Below are positions 31,142 to 41,501 of a DNA stretch of 64,000 nt, in pieces; within the stretch, counting starts at the first letter, position 1, and each line of letters opens with the position of its first letter. Source of the stretch: Candidatus Giovannonibacteria bacterium RIFOXYD1_FULL_48_21 (lineage in GTDB: Bacteria; Patescibacteriota; Minisyncoccia; JACPKW01; UBA11713); NCBI GenBank assembly GCA_001778985.1, contig MFIU01000004.1:3067-67066 (forward strand), written 5' to 3'. The position numbers and the translations under genes were made by a program. The notes below the pieces were generated by a model. The model worked only from the letters and a program-made list of their open reading frames with translations. It had not been told where the DNA came from and did no database searches.

Positions 31142-33694
31142 CTATGTCAGCTTCCGGTTATAGAACCATTTAATCAGTTCCACCAGGCCTATCTTGAAAA
31201 TCCCGAGGACAAAAATCGCGACAAGATGCTGGGGAGCCAGGGGCGTGGTTTTTAGGACCAAATTCAGCGCCGGCAAGTAAATGGCGAGACCCATCATCAA
31301 AAATCCTAAGGCTACGGCCGCCAAAAGATAGCGGTTCGACCAGAGCTCGGTTTTAAAAATCGGGCGGTCTAAAGATTTTAGTGAAAAAACATACATTAAA
31401 GAATCCGTTCCCAGGGCCGCGAAAATAAAAGTCCTCACGTACTCGAGCGGCAGTTTCGAAAATTCCAGAAAAAGCCAGAAGACGGCCAGAAGAACCAGGT
31501 CGGTGATTGCGCCGTAAGCAAAAGCTAAAGCCCGGCCTTTTTTGTCCAAAATCGGCTCCGCGCGCTTAATGGGTTTCCGCTTCATAATATTTTTATCCGC
31601 GCCTTCAAAGGCCAAAGCGAAGTTCGGCAGGCCGTCTTCAACCAGATTTGTCCATAAAATCTGCGCCGCAGTCAACGGCAAAGGAATGCGCAAAATCAAA
31701 GCTCCCAAGATTAAAATAATTTCAGTGAAACTTCCGGAGAGCAAAAAAATCGTAACCTTGCGGATATTGTCAAAAGCGGCGCGGCCGAAACGAATGGCGC
31801 TCACAATAGTGGCGAGGCTGTTTTCAACCAAAACCAAGTCCGCCGCCTCTTTAGTTACGTCCGTGCCGGAATTTAAGGCAATGCCGATATCCGCGAATTT
31901 CAGGGCCGGCGCGTCGTTAATGCCGTCACCGGTCACGGCCACCGCTTCTCCCCGCTCTTTCCACGCTTTCGCAATCCGCATTTTATGTTTGGGGTCCACG
32001 CGCGCGAAAATTTCAATGGCGCCGACTTTTTTCCGAAGCTCCTCGTCTGAAATTTTATCAAGCTCCGTTCCCTCCAAGACATTCTCGGCGGCGGTCCTAA
32101 AGCCCAGTTCCTCTCCGACCGTAACCGCGGTCAAGCGGTGGTCGCCGGTAAACATGATGGTCCTGACCCCGGCCCCCCTGACTTCGGCGATGGCGGCCTT
32201 AACTTCCTTGCGGATCGGGTCGCGAATCACGGCGAGCCCCAGAAAAGTCAGATTCTTCACCAGCCGCTGGAGTTCGACCTCGCCTTTCCCCGAAACCGCC
32301 TCCGGCGCCAGCGGCAAATCCTCTTCCGCGGCGGCGATTACTCTAAATCCTCTTTTCGCGAGCTCCTCGAATTCCCGCCGCATTTCCTCTTTTTCCGGAA
32401 AATCGCGGGAGAGCGACAAAACAATTTCCGGCGCGCCGGAAACAAAAACTCTGCCGGTGTGAAACGAAGCCAAAAATTTTCTCGAAGAATCAAACGGCAA
32501 AAAATTTATCCGCGGAAGCGTTTCCAGAATTTTTTTTAAATCGAATCCTTTATCCAAAAAGGCCTCGAGCTTGGCCTGGTCCGTGGCTTCGCCTTTCACT
32601 ACCCCTCTCTCTACCAGCGCTTCGTTCGCCAGGGCGAGGGCCAGCAAAGTTCTGTCAGAGGCGGCTTTCGAAATTATTTTCTCGACTTTCATCCGGCCTT
32701 CGGTCAAAGTTCCGGTTTTATCCGCCAAAAGCACCGAGACCGAACCCAGAGTTTCGGCCGCGAGAAGTTTTTTGACCAAACCGTTATTCTGGAAAATATT
32801 TTTGCTGGAAATCGCGAGAATCACGGCGATGGCCGCCGGCAGGCCCTCCGGAATCGCGGCCACGGCCACGGCCACGGCGGTTACGAAAATCTGATAAAAT
32901 TCAAACTCTTCCCAAACGCCAACGCCCACGATTATCAAAGCGGCCAGAAGCACGATGACGCTCAAAAAATTACCGAGGCGGGCGATTCTTTCCTGAAGCG
33001 GCGTCTGGTCCTCATGGGACTTTTGAGTGAGCTCGGCGATCTCTCCGATCTGGGTAGATTTTCCGGTAGCCGTGACCACGGCTTCGCCCTCTCCTTTCTC
33101 CGCGGAAGTTCCCGCGAAAAGCATATTTTTACGCTCCGCGGTCGGAACTTCGGCCGAAATTTTTTCTATATTTTTTTTAACGGGGGAAGATTCTCCGGTC
33201 AGAAGGGCTTCGTCCGTAAAAAGTTCTTTGACTGAAAAAAGGCGGGCGTCCGCCGGAATTTTCATTCCGTTTTTAATCAAAATCACGTCCCCCGGCACAA
33301 GCTCGCTGGAATCCAGCTCCCGAACCTCTCCTCCTCTTCTGACCCGGGCCGTAACTCTGACTCGGGCGGAGAGTTTTTCCAAAATCTGACTCGAAGAATA
33401 TTCCTGATAAAAACCGATGCCGACGTTAACCGCCACCGCCGTAAGAATAATGGCCGTATCAAAAAACTCTTTTATCCAAAAAGAAAGCGCTCCCGCGATT
33501 AAAAGAATGTAGACGAGCGGACTTTTGAACTGCGAAACTAGAAAGCCAAGAAGCCTAAACCCTTTTTCGCGGAGAAGCTCGTTCGGTCCGTATTTCTTAA
33601 GCCGCTTTCGCGCCTCTTCGTCCGAAAGCCCTTCCGGCGAAGTCGCGAACGATTTTAAAACCTCCGCCCCCGAAAATTGGTAGAAGCCAGCCAT
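31142..33694 (-). CDS. cation-transporting P-type ATPase (P2/P3-like)
   Basis: Phosphorylation motif DKTGTLT, hinge TGDGINDAPAL and MFTGD. Ten TM helices. Confidence 0.85.
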   Translation of the reverse strand: MAGFYQFSGAEVLKSFATSPEGLSDEEARKRLKKYGPNELLREKGFRLLGFLVSQFKSPLVYILLIAGALSFWIKEFFDTAIILTAVAVNVGIGFYQEYSSSQILEKLSARVRVTARVRRGGEVRELDSSELVPGDVILIKNGMKIPADARLFSVKELFTDEALLTGESSPVKKNIEKISAEVPTAERKNMLFAGTSAEKGEGEAVVTATGKSTQIGEIAELTQKSHEDQTPLQERIARLGNFLSVIVLLAALIIVGVGVWEEFEFYQIFVTAVAVAVAAIPEGLPAAIAVILAISSKNIFQNNGLVKKLLAAETLGSVSVLLADKTGTLTEGRMKVEKIISKAASDRTLLALALANEALVERGVVKGEATDQAKLEAFLDKGFDLKKILETLPRINFLPFDSSRKFLASFHTGRVFVSGAPEIVLSLSRDFPEKEEMRREFEELAKRGFRVIAAAEEDLPLAPEAVSGKGEVELQRLVKNLTFLGLAVIRDPIRKEVKAAIAEVRGAGVRTIMFTGDHRLTAVTVGEELGFRTAAENVLEGTELDKISDEELRKKVGAIEIFARVDPKHKMRIAKAWKERGEAVAVTGDGINDAPALKFADIGIALNSGTDVTKEAADLVLVENSLATIVSAIRFGRAAFDNIRKVTIFLLSGSFTEIILILGALILRIPLPLTAAQILWTNLVEDGLPNFALAFEGADKNIMKRKPIKRAEPILDKKGRALAFAYGAITDLVLLAVFWLFLEFSKLPLEYVRTFIFAALGTDSLMYVFSLKSLDRPIFKTELWSNRYLLAAVALGFLMMGLAIYLPALNLVLKTTPLAPQHLVAIFVLGIFKIGLVELIKWFYNRKLT

Positions 33695-34736: not shown

Positions 34737-35291
34737 GGAGAAAGTTCATTAAGTCTAGTGGTATACTTCAGTGAGTATGCCAGACAAAAGAACTTATGCC
34801 GATCGTGCAAAGTACTTAAGCAAGTACGTATCAAAACGCCGAAAGAAGCTGAAACAGATGGTTGTAGCATATAAGGGTGGTAAGTGCGTGCTTTGCGGGT
34901 ATAGCAAGTACGAAGGCGCATTTGATCTTCATCATATTGATGAGTCAAAAAAAGAATTCGGCTTATCGACAAGAGGCCTGACAAGATCTTGGGAAAAGAC
35001 AAAACGAGAAGCCGATAAGTGCGTTTTAGTATGTGCTAATTGTCATCGCGAATTGCACGGTGGTATTACGCAGCTTTCCGCCGCAAGGCGGATTGAAAAA
35101 CGAGGTGAATTGCTGGAAACCTAAATCCTTTTGGACAAGGCAATCAGCAGCCAAGTCCCGCCATCGGCGGGAAAGGTTCAGAGACTATCTCGAAAGAGAG
35201 TAGTCCGACACAAAGTCGGACGAAGCGCCTCGCCCCTGCAAAATCAGGGTGATGATATAGTCCACCCCCATAAGAAATTTTGGGACAAGTG
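34737..35291 (+). mobile_element. group I intron with HNH homing endonuclease ORF
   Basis: Core segment CAGCAGCCAAGTCC...GTTCAGAGACTATCTCGAAAGAGAGTAGTCCGACACAAAGTCGGACG matches group I P6/P7/P3/P8 consensus (compare Tetrahymena GUUCACAGACUAAAUGUCGGUCGG). Confidence 0.75.
34777..35124 (+). CDS. HNH homing endonuclease (intron-encoded)
   Basis: CVLCGYSKYEGAFDLHHID...CANCHRELH, an HNH motif with flanking Zn-binding Cys pairs. Confidence 0.75.
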   Translation: MPDKRTYADRAKYLSKYVSKRRKKLKQMVVAYKGGKCVLCGYSKYEGAFDLHHIDESKKEFGLSTRGLTRSWEKTKREADKCVLVCANCHRELHGGITQLSAARRIEKRGELLET

Positions 35292-35895: not shown

Positions 35896-37890
35896 ATGCC
35901 AAAACTACCTGATCCATTTTCTACAAAACCGACCAAAGAGCAGATTCAGACAACGCGCGAGATTTTGGACGCTATTTTTAAAGACCCCCAAGTCAAATAC
36001 GGCTTGCGGGAGTTTTCGAAACTAAAAATAGAGGAAGCTATCACGATTTTTGAAAAAGAAAAAGACAAATTTTATATCCACTGCCTCAAACGCGATAAAG
36101 ATATTGCGGTTTATGACAAAAGCAAAAATACCGGCAAGCCGGAAGAAATTATCCGTCAGCTTTGGCTTGTCAGATTGATTAGAGATTATCGCTACCCCCC
36201 CGATAGAATTGATGTTGAGGTTGACGTACATTTCGGCACAGAAGTCCACAGAAAAGCCGCCGATATAATGATTTACCAGGACGATAAGGAAACGCCCTAC
36301 ATTGTTTTTGAATTAAAGAAGCCGAAAGTTGAAGACGGGATAGATCAGTTAAAAAGCTATCTAAACTCCAAAGGTTCGCCGATTGGTGTTTGGTCCAACG
36401 GAAACGAGCGGGTTATTCTTTATCGTCCCTATCCGAAAAAATTTGAAAACAACTTGCGGGCAATCCCTCGCGTTGACCAGACAATTGAGGATGTTCTGGA
36501 AGAACGGCTTACCTTGGAAAAATTGACCTCCGACTATGATTTGAGCGAGCGCATTAAAATTTTGGAGGAACTGGTGCTTGCTAATGCCGGAGTTGATGTC
36601 TTCCAGGAAGTTTTCAAACTCATTTACGCAAAACTTTATGATGAAAAAGAAGCGCGCTCGCGCCCGGACAAAGAGGTTTATTTCCGAATGTCCAAGGACC
36701 CGAAATTTACTTTTGACATTGTTAATCGGCTATTCAAGGAATCTGTTTTGGAGTGGCCGGGAATTTTTACTCCTCACGATGAACTTCAATTATCACCCGA
36801 ACATCTTGCCGTTTGCGTTTCAGAGTTGGAAGACATAAAACTCCTTGATTCAAGCTTGGAAATTATTGACACCGCTTTTGAATATCTTTTGCCGGAAGTG
36901 GCGAAAGGCAAAAAAGGACAATACTTTACGCCTCGCCATGTGATTGATATGGCGGTAAAAATGCTCAATCCGCGCGATAAAGAATACATTGTTGACCCAG
37001 CGGCAGGGTCGGGCGGCTTTCTTATCCACGCTATGCAGTGGGTTTGGAGCCATGACTTGAAAGAAACGCCGCACGAAAAGCAGGTTGACTATGCCCGCCG
37101 GTATCTTTTCGGCATTGATTTTGACGATAAGCCGGTAAAAATCTCCCGCGCCTTGATGCTTATTGCCGGAGACGGCCGCTCGCATATTTTCAAACTTAAT
37201 TCTCTTAATCCGAAAGAATGGCAAGGTTCTGACTCTGAAAAAGAAAATGCGAGAGCAGAACTTCGCAAACTACTTCTTAAAACCGGTGATTACGAAGCAG
37301 ACCGAAACAACGAGGAAAATTTCCGCAGTTTTGCTTTTGATGTTTTACTTACCAATCCGCCGTTTGCCGGAAAAATCAAAGAGCAAATGCTATTGCGAGA
37401 GTATGAACTAGCCAAAAACAAAAAAGGTAAAATTCCTAAACAAGTCGGCCGCGATCTTCTTTTCATTGAGCGGGCGCTTCAACTAATAAAGCCCGGCGGG
37501 CGTTTAGCAATCGTCCTCCCCCAAGGCAAGCTAAACAACACGAATACCGAATACATCCGCCAGTGGTTGTTAGGTAGGGCGCGAGTTTTAGCGGTTGTCG
37601 GATTGCATGGTAACACCTTCAAACCGCATACCGGCACTAAAACCTCTCTATTATTTTTGCAGAAATGGGGCGGCGAAGCCGGAAGGCCAGAAGACGATTA
37701 CCCAATTTTTATGGCAACTTCCAAAAACTCTGGAAAAGATAATTCCGGAGAATATGTCTATAAAAAAGATGCGAAAGGAAATTTTGTTTTGGACGAACGC
37801 GGCCGCCGAATTTTACATCACGACTTGGATGAAGTTGCCGAGACATTCGTCAAATTCGCCAAAGAACAAAAATTTAGTTTTTGGAAATAA
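35896..37890 (+). CDS. restriction-modification protein: HsdR_N-like PD-(D/E)xK nuclease domain fused to gamma-class N6-adenine DNA methyltransferase (HsdM / type IIB A-subunit-like)
   Basis: N-terminal ADIMIYQDDKETPYIVFELKKPKVEDGIDQLKSY (D...ELK pattern of HsdR_N). MTase motif I VDPAAGSGGFL and motif IV LLTNPPF. Confidence 0.75.
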   Translation: MPKLPDPFSTKPTKEQIQTTREILDAIFKDPQVKYGLREFSKLKIEEAITIFEKEKDKFYIHCLKRDKDIAVYDKSKNTGKPEEIIRQLWLVRLIRDYRYPPDRIDVEVDVHFGTEVHRKAADIMIYQDDKETPYIVFELKKPKVEDGIDQLKSYLNSKGSPIGVWSNGNERVILYRPYPKKFENNLRAIPRVDQTIEDVLEERLTLEKLTSDYDLSERIKILEELVLANAGVDVFQEVFKLIYAKLYDEKEARSRPDKEVYFRMSKDPKFTFDIVNRLFKESVLEWPGIFTPHDELQLSPEHLAVCVSELEDIKLLDSSLEIIDTAFEYLLPEVAKGKKGQYFTPRHVIDMAVKMLNPRDKEYIVDPAAGSGGFLIHAMQWVWSHDLKETPHEKQVDYARRYLFGIDFDDKPVKISRALMLIAGDGRSHIFKLNSLNPKEWQGSDSEKENARAELRKLLLKTGDYEADRNNEENFRSFAFDVLLTNPPFAGKIKEQMLLREYELAKNKKGKIPKQVGRDLLFIERALQLIKPGGRLAIVLPQGKLNNTNTEYIRQWLLGRARVLAVVGLHGNTFKPHTGTKTSLLFLQKWGGEAGRPEDDYPIFMATSKNSGKDNSGEYVYKKDAKGNFVLDERGRRILHHDLDEVAETFVKFAKEQKFSFWK

Positions 37891-37899
37891 ATTACTCTT

Positions 37900-38871
37900 A
37901 TGAATACTGAAGAATATAAAAAAATAGATTGGAACAAACTACTTCGTAAGGACTTGGGCGAGTATAGTTTGGAAGTGGCGAAGCCAAATCTCGACAGAAT
38001 AAAGTCGATATTTGACGAGATTTTGAATTATCCAAACCTCGATCAGCTATCTGATAATTTTAAAAATCAGATTCAATCACAACTTAATTCCTTGGTGCAA
38101 TTTGCGAATCAGATTGTAAATAACTTTCAAAATACGAGTGAGCGTCAAACTTGGATCAATAATATAAAAAATAAGGAGTTCGAAGTTTATCAAAATCTCT
38201 CAAATATCTATGGGTATATAAAGGATTTTGATCCGGCAAGAGATGAACGGCTGAAAGATGTTATTAAAAAGTCAGAGGAACGTATAAAAAAGTTAAATGA
38301 GGATTTAAGTAAAACAGAAGCTCTTTTGCAGCAGGCGCAGAAAAAGGCAGTTCAAAGCGAAGTAATGGAATATGGAAACTTCTTTGGAAATGAGGCGGTA
38401 AAAAACGAGAGAACGGCAAAAATAAACCGATGGCTAATGTTCGGAAGTGTTGCTTTAACTGCTGTGCTCTCTGTTATCTTTCTACAAAACATCAAATTTG
38501 TTTCATCAGAAGAAATGACATTTTTTGAAAATGTCCTACAAACTATAAATGCACAAAACATACTTATAAAGTTTGTTTTGCTCTCGCTGGGCGGTTTCTT
38601 GATTGCTCATTTTTCAAAAGTACATTCAACGGAGAAAAACTTGTATAACCTCAATATCCAGCGACAAAATGCGCTTAATTCTCATAAACAAATTCTTGAT
38701 TCAGTAGTTGCTACTGAAAGTGAAAATGAGAAAGAAGTTAGAAACGCGATTTTACTTGAACTTACTAAAGCAATTTTTGCTAACCATGAGACCGGTTACT
38801 TGAAGGGTTCTAAAGATAATCCTGGGCCAGCAAGCCAGATAGTAGAGATAACAAAGACTTTACCGAAGTAA
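37900..38871 (+). CDS. hypothetical coiled-coil protein with two TM helices, embedded between the M and S genes
   Basis: 323 aa. About 170-aa Asn/Gln/Lys-rich coiled-coil N-domain, helices WLMFGSVALTAVLSVIFL and ILIKFVLLSLGGFLIAHF, and a 90-aa C-tail. No family. Confidence 0.5.
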   Translation: MNTEEYKKIDWNKLLRKDLGEYSLEVAKPNLDRIKSIFDEILNYPNLDQLSDNFKNQIQSQLNSLVQFANQIVNNFQNTSERQTWINNIKNKEFEVYQNLSNIYGYIKDFDPARDERLKDVIKKSEERIKKLNEDLSKTEALLQQAQKKAVQSEVMEYGNFFGNEAVKNERTAKINRWLMFGSVALTAVLSVIFLQNIKFVSSEEMTFFENVLQTINAQNILIKFVLLSLGGFLIAHFSKVHSTEKNLYNLNIQRQNALNSHKQILDSVVATESENEKEVRNAILLELTKAIFANHETGYLKGSKDNPGPASQIVEITKTLPK

Positions 38872-38873
38872 TC

Positions 38874-40238
38874 ATGCAGTATTCAATAATCCAAAAATCA
38901 CGACTTGAAGGTGGCCTACGGCTAGACGCGGAATTTTACCATCCGGAAAAATTAGAGGCGATGGAAAAGTTATCTAAATTCGGCATTAGCACTATTGCCG
39001 AGAATTTTCGGAACGTAAAAGAAACTTTTAACCCCCTCCGACATAAGTTAGCTACCACCCCCGCTCGCGTTTTTGATTTGTCTGATGTGAGTTCTTTTCT
39101 ACTGGAAGCAGGAGCAAAAGTAGAAAAAGCCGATGAAGTCGGCTCTACAAAAAAGATTATTCGCCAAAATGATGTTTTGATTTCTCGCTTGAGGCCTTAT
39201 CTCAAGGAAGTTTCTTTTGTGGGGTTTAATGAGGTTCAAAAACTGGCTTCAACCGAGTTTGTGGTTTTACGAAAAAAGAAGGATTCAAAGTTTCCTCCGC
39301 AAGCCCTTTTTGCATTTTTAACAACAGACGAAGTTCAAAATATTTTATTCTGGAGTCAAGGAGGAACAGAACATCCTCGCTTTTCCGAAAATCTTTTGAT
39401 GGGCTTAAAATTGCCGAAAACTTCGGAAAAGATGGCAGAAAGTATCGTAGATGATGTTAACGGCACTTACAAAAATTATCTGATATCACAAAATCTTTAC
39501 TCTCAAGCCGAGGATTTGCTGTTGGAAGAATTAGGATTGAAAGATAAAGATTTTGAGATTAAGGACGATTTGGCTTATATCGTCAATCTTTCTGAAATAA
39601 AATCCAACCATCGCGCTGACGCCGAATACTTCCAGCCGAAGTACGAAAACATTATGTCTCTAATTCGCGCGAATGGTGGAACAATGCTTGGCGATTTAGC
39701 AACGATGAAAAAAGGCATTGAGCCGGGGAGTGAGGTATATCAAGATGAGGGCAAACTATTTATTCGTGTAAGCAGCTTGTCTAAAAATGGGCTTGAAGAC
39801 AAAGACCAAAAGTATTTAAGCGATGAATTGTATCAGAAGTTAAAGAAAAATTACGAGCCGAAAGTTGGCGAGATTTTACTAACCAAAGACGCAACGCCAG
39901 GCACCGCTTATGTAGTGAAAGAGCCGATTGAGGGGATTGTTTCGAGCGGCATTTTACGCTTGAAGTTAAAGAATGAAAAGGTGGAAAATGAATATCTGGC
40001 ATTGTGTCTTAATTCCGTAATCGGACAAACTCAAGCGGAGCGCGATGGTGGGGGTTCTATCATTACACACTGGAGACCGGAACAAATCAAAAATGTTTTA
40101 ATTCCGATTTTACCCAAACCCACCCAGCAGAAAATCGCCGACTTAGTCCAAAAATCCCACGAAGCCCGCTCAAAAGCAAAACAACTTTTAGAACAAGCCA
40201 AATATAAAGTTGAACAATTGATTGAATCTAAAAAATAA
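38874..40238 (+). CDS. hsdS: type I-like specificity subunit HsdS (two target-recognition domains)
   Basis: Internal duplication with conserved LDAEFYHPEKLEAMEKL and ADAEYFQPKYENIMSLI spacer motifs typical of HsdS. Confidence 0.75.
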   Translation: MQYSIIQKSRLEGGLRLDAEFYHPEKLEAMEKLSKFGISTIAENFRNVKETFNPLRHKLATTPARVFDLSDVSSFLLEAGAKVEKADEVGSTKKIIRQNDVLISRLRPYLKEVSFVGFNEVQKLASTEFVVLRKKKDSKFPPQALFAFLTTDEVQNILFWSQGGTEHPRFSENLLMGLKLPKTSEKMAESIVDDVNGTYKNYLISQNLYSQAEDLLLEELGLKDKDFEIKDDLAYIVNLSEIKSNHRADAEYFQPKYENIMSLIRANGGTMLGDLATMKKGIEPGSEVYQDEGKLFIRVSSLSKNGLEDKDQKYLSDELYQKLKKNYEPKVGEILLTKDATPGTAYVVKEPIEGIVSSGILRLKLKNEKVENEYLALCLNSVIGQTQAERDGGGSIITHWRPEQIKNVLIPILPKPTQQKIADLVQKSHEARSKAKQLLEQAKYKVEQLIESKK

Positions 40239-41277: not shown

Positions 41278-41501
41278 GAGCCGGAAGCGAAGCGTCAGAA
41301 ATCAGTGTCAGGATTTTCGCGAAAAAAAGTTCGGATTTCGTTCAGGGTGTGGAGCCAGTAGCAAACTTAAGTCATTTTCAGAAAAATTTTTGCGTGCGAC
41401 GCAAAGCGTCGCCCATTGTTTTGCGGGGATTTCTTCAACTTTTTTATTTCGTAAAGTCAGGTTCGAGCCGAATATTTTTTGGAGAACTATAAATAATTTT
41501 T

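Follow-up and report, generated by a model that had tools for sequence, protein, structure and literature searches.

In a 64-kb stretch of DNA from Candidatus Giovannonibacteria bacterium RIFOXYD1_FULL_48_21 (contig MFIU01000004.1; "the window" below means this whole stretch of 64,000 nt, with positions counted from its first letter), an operon of restriction-modification (R-M) genes encloses a gene for a protein with two transmembrane (TM) helices. We call this gene, and its product, X throughout. Our data show that X is one of a large, unnamed family of ~320-350-aa inner-membrane proteins, and that its pattern of occurrence is unusual: it lies inside operons of two unrelated R-M architectures and beside others, and its sequence is better conserved than those of the flanking R-M genes. 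Members of the family behave as conflict genes that are self-contained and move horizontally. We consider X probably to be a defence-associated membrane protein, and hold at about even confidence that it is a self-contained, membrane-acting phage-exclusion gene, abortive or membrane-damaging, that would serve as a second line behind restriction.

Results

X is a conserved gene within an R-M operon

Gene X starts 9 nt past the stop codon of a 664-aa M gene and ends 2 nt before a 454-aa S gene, in agreement with a first-pass annotation of the window, made from the sequence and its open reading frames (ORFs), which had described a 323-aa protein between methyltransferase (MTase) and specificity genes. 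The interval 37900-38871 holds only one other ORF, of 69 aa, on the reverse strand and with no support. A first homologue search returned full-length relatives in 53 clusters, with identities of 42-99%, and codon comparison among six orthologues gave pairwise ratios of nonsynonymous to synonymous substitution (dN/dS) of 0.02-0.13, with dS of at least 0.6 or saturated. Because it has so many full-length relatives and such low dN/dS, X is not a chance ORF; it is a real gene under strong purifying selection.

X is the fourth of six same-strand genes separated by gaps of 1-20 nt, which encode an HTH_3 protein, a truncated radC product, M, X, S and a PDC-S18 protein (Table 1), and it is almost certainly co-transcribed with the R-M operon. 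The region from 38 to 41 kb forms a low-GC island, with a G+C fraction of 0.35-0.40 against ~0.47 nearby. We found no tRNA between 30 and 46 kb of the window, and no flanking direct repeats marking an island boundary.

Conservation in X is concentrated around its membrane hairpin

To describe the architecture of X we combined hydropathy (Kyte-Doolittle, 19-residue means), an AlphaFold2 model built from a 68-sequence alignment (pLDDT, the predicted local distance difference test, 88.5; predicted template modelling score 0.56), and conservation, expressed as bits per column over the family alignment; the broad alignment comprises 68 members reaching down to 19% identity. Two Kyte-Doolittle peaks, whose positions are listed in Table 1, bear out the two TM helices proposed in the first-pass annotation. 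Exactly two hydrophobic peaks are also present in 157 of 172 full-length members, in which the distance from the centre of TM2 to the C-terminus has a median of ~93 aa and a range of 84-108.

The N-terminal domain carries a conserved motif (W11, L14, R16, L19, G20) and is more variable than the C-domain, at 1.46 bits per column. It is followed by a stalk helix that the model continues without a break into TM1. The Asn/Gln/Lys-rich character noted earlier holds for aa 1-175, which contain 12% N, 7.4% Q and 11.4% K. The long coiled coil proposed for this region stands as far as its helical N-terminal part, but the AlphaFold2 model places there a helix bundle and one 80-residue stalk/TM helix, so that "coiled coil" at best describes a possible oligomer. 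The "short C-tail" of the same description does not hold, since ~82 aa follow TM2 and aa 242-302 among them are the most conserved part of the family. This C-domain carries the motif E245..LY..N252.QR255QN257AL259.SH...T272.SENEKE..N282.ILLE.T.AIF...TG299Y.K. In the model, helix 221-268 comprises TM2 and the conserved post-TM segment, and a further helix follows at 275-293.

Near-invariant positions across the 68 members are F162 before TM1, N252, R255, N257 and L259 after TM2, and G299. F162 is invariant and lies with the conserved A166 in YGNFFGNEA, just before the membrane. The net charges flanking the two TM helices (+1, -2, +1) suggest an N-in/C-in topology, in which the inter-TM loop, the least conserved segment of the family at 1.0 bit per column, would face outward. 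As the near-invariant residues flank TM1 and TM2, conservation is concentrated at what we infer to be the cytoplasmic face of the hairpin.

X belongs to a large family absent from curated libraries

No curated model in Pfam, NCBIfam, PADLOC or PHROGs matches X; searches of these libraries returned only coiled-coil and TM noise (ArdA at 18 bits, ATP-synt_B, JetC and a type VI secretion system effector). The ArdA match (PF07275) reaches 18.1 bits against a cut-off of 27 over aa 3-88 of the window protein (37900-38160); we judge it to be noise because the window protein is the only one of the 68 members to match and because the predicted fold is all-helical. Matches to DUF2207_C in 8 of the 68 members were treated as similarity of TM helices and composition, not as homology. 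X has no significant match among PDB sequences, and Foldseek searches of the PDB with either model gave none; the structure prediction called for in the first-pass annotation thus yielded a model with no significant PDB fold match. A structure search of BFVD returned only a member of the same family.

A profile built from 25 relatives and searched against 1.84 billion representatives (clusters at 50% identity) recovered 2,523 clusters at E<=1e-3, of which 1,223 reach E<=1e-10. The earlier statement that no family could be recognised is therefore right for the curated libraries, but X does belong to a family, an unnamed one of ~2,500 clusters. The best 150 relatives are mostly 300-370 aa long and align end to end, the remainder being shorter fragments, and all named members are annotated "hypothetical protein". 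Members from the Candidate Phyla Radiation (CPR) come from Ca. Azambacteria, Minisyncoccota, Paceibacterota and Peribacteria; others come from Ekhidna and Roseivirga (Bacteroidota), Gamma- and Alphaproteobacteria, Bdellovibrionales, Opitutia, and Megasphaera and its prophages. The window's subfamily is absent from IMG/VR. Searches by tblastn found nothing for the window protein in PLSDB plasmids, nor for the prophage-branch member P0197 in INPHARED phages, and further homologue searches with the A2 profile and with member P0134 added nothing useful.

In the homologues of loci L008, L009 and L010, and in members P0024, P0025, P0027, P0030 and P0050, a Trp stands at a conserved family Gly. The loci cannot be translated with table 11. 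All these homologues derive from genomes in which UGA codes for Gly (code 25), and their database translations are wrong.

X recurs in R-M operons, prophage immunity modules and a defence array

We collected ~24 dereplicated gene contexts of the family. Twelve of these lie inside or beside R-M genes, in four architectures, and at least 18 contain R-M, abortive-infection (Abi), toxin-antitoxin (TA), RHS or prophage immunity genes. The order M-X-S is found in four independent cassettes (window/L025, L027, L006/L007/L029 and L013), which are followed by different genes (for PDC-S18, an Eco57I-like MTase, RecQ and an AAA_15 ATPase). X is also embedded in type III operons, either as Mod, a 284-aa protein, X and Res (L004/L005) or as Mod, X, a 247-aa protein and Res in two diverged loci (L014 and L034). 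Gaps within these operons are 2-12 nt. Elsewhere X stands beside SNF2/PLD and type IIG (Eco57I-type) MTase genes (L001/L011, L016) or beside N6_N4 MTases (L002, L030); in L012 an S gene lies three genes downstream of X, and one distant member is next to a cluster of C5-MTase, HNH_2 and HATPase_c_3 (GHKL) genes. The additional proteins of the type III cassettes are a 284-aa protein with CxxC pairs (L004 7134-7988) and a 247-aa protein with hydrophobic N-terminal segments (L014 8972-9715, L034 6987-7727); they are mutually unrelated and neither has a Pfam match.

Prophages provide a second kind of setting. In a Megasphaera prophage the gene order is cI-like repressor, Zn-ribbon protein, X and serine integrase; related phages in IMG/VR have cro, cI, DUF4041/T5orf172 (or a 281-aa membrane protein), X, Abi_2 and a tyrosine integrase. 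In one IMG/VR prophage (L040 6001-7017) the X homologue is split into ORFs of 113 and 168 aa, by a frameshift or an assembly error, and would be an example of decay. A LexA- or cI-like repressor gene (helix-turn-helix plus S24 peptidase) directly precedes the X operon in two M-X-S cassettes and in all prophage contexts (Table 1), hinting at SOS- or induction-linked expression.

On the Vibrio tubiashii plasmid pFP31 (L044, 184-203 kb), X is one cassette of a same-strand array that encodes Hhe, a HEPN-associated protein, a 5'-nucleotidase, the X homologue, a GIY-YIG protein, AbiH and an AAA protein, with gaps of ~100-500 bp. The array looks like an integron-type defence cassette array, and the occurrence of X as a single cassette in it argues that X works on its own. 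Further settings are an RHS toxin locus, an island with RelA_SpoT and PIN-domain TA genes, and an insertion sequence/Fic region of Piscirickettsia plasmids. One X neighbour contains an R-x4-H motif and was read as HEPN-like; Pfam gave no match for it. All-against-all BLAST of the neighbours identified no partner gene conserved beside X, which fits a single-gene module, and no locus has a cyclase or reverse transcriptase (RT) gene next to X. The gene-neighbourhood comparison suggested in the first-pass annotation therefore finds X recurring between M and S, between Mod and Res, in prophage immunity modules and in a defence cassette array. This context supports the core of the earlier idea, that an R-M operon has taken up X as an accessory defence gene, whose site of action is probably the membrane.

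X is the most conserved gene of its cassettes

Comparison of syntenic cassettes gave identities of 88% for X, 59% for M and 50% for S between the window and L013, and of 77%, 49% and 44%, respectively, between the window and L029. In the type III pair L014 and L034 the identities are 76% for X, 59% for Mod, 62% for Res and 69% for the 247-aa protein. X is thus the most conserved gene in each syntenic cassette, and the rank order of divergence is kept, from which we conclude that X has travelled with its cassettes for long and is more tightly constrained than the R-M genes. As judged from the gene sequences, this indicates long co-inheritance of X within a type IIB-like R-M operon of the order nuclease-MTase, X, S. 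Over longer times X has, by the order of an unweighted pair group (UPGMA) clustering, also moved between R-M types.

The surrounding operon is a type IIB-like nuclease-methyltransferase and specificity pair

The first-pass annotation placed X in a type I R-M locus. This was imprecise: M carries a nuclease domain, its nearest solved relative is a type IIB enzyme, and the window lacks HsdR. The M protein combines in one polypeptide a PD-(D/E)xK nuclease and a gamma-class N6-adenine MTase and is accompanied by a separate, adjacent S gene, the arrangement by which we call a locus type IIB-like. Its catalytic residues D123 and E139-x-K141 are kept in three cassettes whose M proteins are only 49-59% identical overall, and the closest solved relative is type IIB RM.BsaXI (E 1.2e-33, compared with ~1e-16 for type I HsdM). 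No HsdR-sized ORF is present in the 64-kb window, because only one ORF reaches 700 aa (31142-33694, 850 aa) and by eye it looks like a P-type ATPase. We rejected a classic type I locus on this lack of HsdR and on the score of M against the NCBIfam hsdM model TIGR00497, 38 bits against a cut-off of 243; M is also far below the MADS2 cut-off. The locus is best described, from its predicted proteins, as a type IIB-like pair of nuclease-MTase fusion and S with X between them. Below their cut-offs, M also matches MADS MAD2 and the S gene matches MAD5.

The last gene of the string, which encodes a PDC-S18 protein, is not conserved beside the other M-X-S cassettes and is therefore probably a separate, stacked defence gene. 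At the other end, the M gene begins 1 nt after a truncated radC. The JAB half of radC is found nowhere in the window, and the 3' half looks as if it had been replaced by the R-M cassette; in L004/L005 and L002 a full-length radC lies 1-4 genes upstream of the cassettes that contain X. Shortly before the HTH gene at the head of the string, a complete group I intron core is present at 35052-35284 on the forward strand (Rfam RF00028, 83.5 bits, E 1.4e-20), and an ORF for a 117-aa HNH-type endonuclease (34771-35124) adjoins the 5' end of this core and overlaps it. ARAGORN found no tRNA, and no host gene for the intron is evident.

Table 1. Features of gene X, its operon and the repressor genes that precede related operons. 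Coordinates are window positions except in the last row, where they are positions in the named loci; aa, residues of X.
Feature	Coordinates	Strand	Description
Gene X	37900..38871 (including stop codon)	+	ATG start; 323 aa; two-TM protein
N-terminal cytoplasmic helical domain, aa 1-110	37900..38229	+	Helices 25-42, 52-75 and 79-110; block pLDDT 90-98
Stalk helix, aa 116-175	38245..38424	+	Uninterrupted into TM1; single helix 116-196 in AlphaFold2 model
TM helix 1, aa 176-197	38425..38490	+	Kyte-Doolittle mean up to 1.91; peak centre ~aa 187-193
Inter-TM loop, aa 198-220	38491..38559	+	Small helix 208-218; net acidic (K+R 1, D+E 3)
TM helix 2, aa 221-241	38560..38622	+	Kyte-Doolittle peak 1.97 at aa 229-230; within model helix 221-268
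Cytoplasmic juxtamembrane C-domain, aa 242-302	38623..38805	+	Most conserved family segment, 2.5 bits per column
C-terminal tail, aa 303-323	38806..38868	+	Low confidence, pLDDT 41-52
HTH_3 protein, 69 aa	35351..35560	+	Heads the gene string; HTH_3 9.2e-15; PADLOC Control_protein 1.1e-9 (R-M controller/C-protein models)
Truncated radC, 110 aa	35562..35894	+	N-terminal UPF0758_N domain only
M gene, 664-aa nuclease-MTase fusion	35896..37890	+	HSDR_N_2 PD-(D/E)xK plus N6_Mtase, NPPF at 487; Pfam and PADLOC
S gene, 454-aa specificity subunit	38874..40238	+	Methylase_S 6.3e-13; PADLOC Specificity_I 3.6e-27
PDC-S18 protein, 306 aa	40259..41179	+	Last gene of the string; PADLOC candidate single-gene defence, 1.8e-105; weak NucS signal, 7.5e-5
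Terminator-like hairpin	41396..41412	+	First past the gene string; 7-bp stem with 6 GC pairs, T-rich tail; consensus match only
LexA-/cI-like repressors before X operon	L006/L029 3386-4060; L013 5401-6042; L020 6528-7292; L041 402-1097		

Discussion

Taken by kind, X is a known sort of gene, a single-gene accessory module for defence that sits in an R-M island and probably acts at the membrane; the family itself is absent from curated libraries. A variable N-domain, a rigid stalk continuous with TM1, a short and poorly conserved loop and an invariant polar cluster lead us to propose a sensor-to-gate mechanism. The N-terminal domain would sense an infection cue, and the stalk would pass the signal to the hairpin and to the polar cluster F162, N252, R255, N257 and G299 (which are also targets for mutagenesis) at the cytoplasmic face of the membrane. 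Oligomers of X might then make the membrane permeable, depolarise it or hasten lysis, aborting infection as reported for the lactococcal protein AbiZ. We infer for X the role of an abortive-infection effector, oligomerisation and membrane damage included.

Several points weigh against this account. A defence role for X is guilt by association, read purely from gene context, and in about five contexts no neighbour is obviously a defence gene (L003/L018, with outer-membrane protein genes, L009, L032, L035 and L019). The net charges of +1, -2 and +1 give only a weak positive-inside signal for the proposed topology, and X has no significant structural likeness to any pore former (best E 2.2, template modelling score (TM-score) 0.15). 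X of the window matches none of the models of AbiZ, DUF6161 or SLATT/2-TM effectors at E<=0.1. Two of the 68 family members do match the PADLOC AbiZ model at E<=1e-3, the better being P0134 (E 6.7e-6), whose aa 94-299, spanning stalk, hairpin and C-domain, fall on positions 187-356 of the 398 in the model; the unrelated LeoBC model is matched equally (4 of 68 members, E 1.2e-6), so that the AbiZ matches may reflect helix and TM composition.

The placement of X invites a different explanation, in which it is a suicide effector guarded by R-M proteins, following the logic of Ronin and PrrC. The surrounding R-M proteins would keep X inactive until the R-M complex was disabled or occupied by an anti-restriction protein from a phage (Ocr, ArdA or Stp-like); X would then be free to attack the membrane. 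Ronin, with HsdM and HsdS but no HsdR beside the transmembrane protein RonA, is the precedent (bioRxiv 10.1101/2023.04.06.535777), and the window likewise lacks HsdR. X lies between modification and specificity or restriction genes in two R-M architectures, with gaps of 2-12 nt, and has diverged together with them; its N-domain is more variable than its C-domain, as expected of a partner-specific interface. We nevertheless regard such guarding as unlikely. Many members (in prophage modules, the Vibrio array, RHS and TA loci) have no R-M gene nearby, and the family therefore needs no R-M partner; the R-M types that do flank X are mutually unrelated, which argues against one specific protein interface; M keeps its nuclease catalytic residues and so is no nuclease-less decoy as in Ronin; and X, with 323 aa and two TM helices, is not homologous to RonA, with 61 aa and one. 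The wider form of this idea, which we hold to be similarly improbable, would make X a general back-up to restriction, a membrane suicide protein in type IIB-like, type III, IIG/SNF2 and C5-MTase/HNH operons; that it fires when a phage anti-restriction factor blocks the neighbouring R-M enzyme belongs to the same reading and has the same small chance.

Nor do we give much weight to superinfection exclusion, by which X would sit constitutively in the cytoplasmic membrane and block phage genome entry or an early envelope step without killing the cell. X is an integral membrane protein, and prophage copies lie in the repressor-to-integrase module, the classical place of exclusion genes expressed in lysogens, where they are transcribed with the cI-like repressor gene; yet the same location also houses abortive-infection genes, and the neighbour here is Abi_2. 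Moreover, the outward segment is only ~23 aa long and the least conserved part, whereas the conserved residues are nearly all cytoplasmic, a better fit to intracellular sensing or gating than to contact with a virion at the outer face. Slightly less probable still is a role outside defence, with X as a membrane scaffold or regulator of R-M enzymes, an unrelated membrane protein, or a selfish hitch-hiker in variable islands. No enzymatic or toxin domain is recognisable in X, several contexts lack defence neighbours and one copy directly follows rpoD, all of which would suit it. Set against these are strong purifying selection across phyla and very different islands, the defence or conflict genes in at least 18 of the ~24 contexts, and the single X cassette in the Vibrio array of defence genes; a regulator specific to R-M enzymes would, moreover, not persist in prophage and cassette contexts without R-M genes. 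The self-contained phage-exclusion gene thus remains the account that we prefer.

If the family does protect against phages, it would add a widespread single-gene defence module of ~2,500 sequence clusters, spread from CPR bacteria to Bacteroidota, Proteobacteria, Bdellovibrionota and prophages of Negativicutes, and missed by PADLOC, Pfam, NCBIfam and PHROGs. Its presence inside R-M operons raises the question whether restriction is routinely paired with a membrane-acting second line, autonomous or R-M-guarded. The recognised defences of CPR bacteria are mostly R-M systems, and X would be among the very few candidate abortive-infection functions in this group. Should the guarded form be true, the logic of Ronin and PrrC would extend to a large, phylum-spanning family and give the defence-poor CPR an abortive-infection layer. 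Many candidate defence families exist, and X is a good testable candidate rather than a surprise.

Among known systems, those that share the placement of X differ from it in other respects. PrrC and RloC are extra defence genes that serve as back-up inside type I R-M loci, and both are soluble ABC-ATPase anticodon nucleases; X resembles them in lying inside an R-M operon but is a membrane protein without an ATPase or nuclease domain. In Ronin, RonA toxicity is suppressed by HsdMS and triggered by Ocr, ArdA or Aop1 (bioRxiv 10.1101/2023.04.06.535777). The E. coli ECOR55 Ronin locus and the window both have M and S genes without HsdR and, tightly linked to them, a gene for a membrane protein. 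Unlike Ronin, which has no nuclease, the window encodes an M protein with intact PD-(D/E)xK residues (D123/E139/K141), and X occurs also with type III systems and without any R-M genes.

Other systems share aspects of the protein itself. Like X, the SLATT and 2-TM effectors of CBASS (cyclic oligonucleotide-based antiphage signalling systems), retrons and DRT (defence-associated RT) systems have a minimal membrane hairpin, which there acts as a death effector; Pfam SLATT models do not match X at E<=0.1, and one of the 68 members weakly matches PADLOC RTasSLATT. In contrast to SLATT modules, X has no linked signalling enzyme, and its hairpin is flanked on either side by large, conserved cytoplasmic parts. 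The ClyA-family alpha-pore-forming toxins AhlB, SmhB and XaxB have a similar length, an all-helical build and a hydrophobic hairpin about two-thirds along the chain. They are among the top Foldseek rows in both searches, at E>2, probability <=0.08 and TM-score ~0.15; unlike X, they are secreted toxins and not residents of the cytoplasmic membrane. Sequence matches also lead to the uncharacterised DUF6161 (PF19658); a 2025 preprint lists a family of this name as a high-scoring predicted antiphage family without known homology. Five of the 68 members match it at 17-19 bits, below the gathering score of 27, X of the window not among them; in three members that we inspected the match is colinear, with model positions 27-214 of 216 on aa 128-317 (stalk, hairpin and C-domain). 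The X family has in addition an N-terminal domain of ~110-130 aa. This suggests, at the level of profile matches, that the X family is remotely related to DUF6161, not a member of it. We count these matches, like those to AbiZ, in favour of a defence role for X.

The closest characterised analogue of X, to judge by their shared features, is AbiZ of Lactococcus lactis pTR2030 (PADLOC PDLC02354). A review (PMC13064643) and, reportedly, a 2007 abstract describe AbiZ as a ~400-aa protein that has two predicted TM helices and lacks a known domain. Homology between AbiZ and X is unproven, because the LeoBC matches are equally strong and X of the window has no AbiZ match; tblastn of P0134 and P0197 against plasmids gave no lactococcal match. 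As an analogue AbiZ is instructive all the same: it is a two-TM, single-gene lactococcal Abi protein encoded beside an R-M system, without a recognisable domain or PDB neighbour, and it is reported to raise holin-dependent membrane permeability and to cause premature lysis (review PMC13064643). Like X, it is specified by a single gene next to R-M genes on a mobile element, carries its two TM helices towards the C-terminus with no domain assigned, and is of similar size (model of 398 positions).

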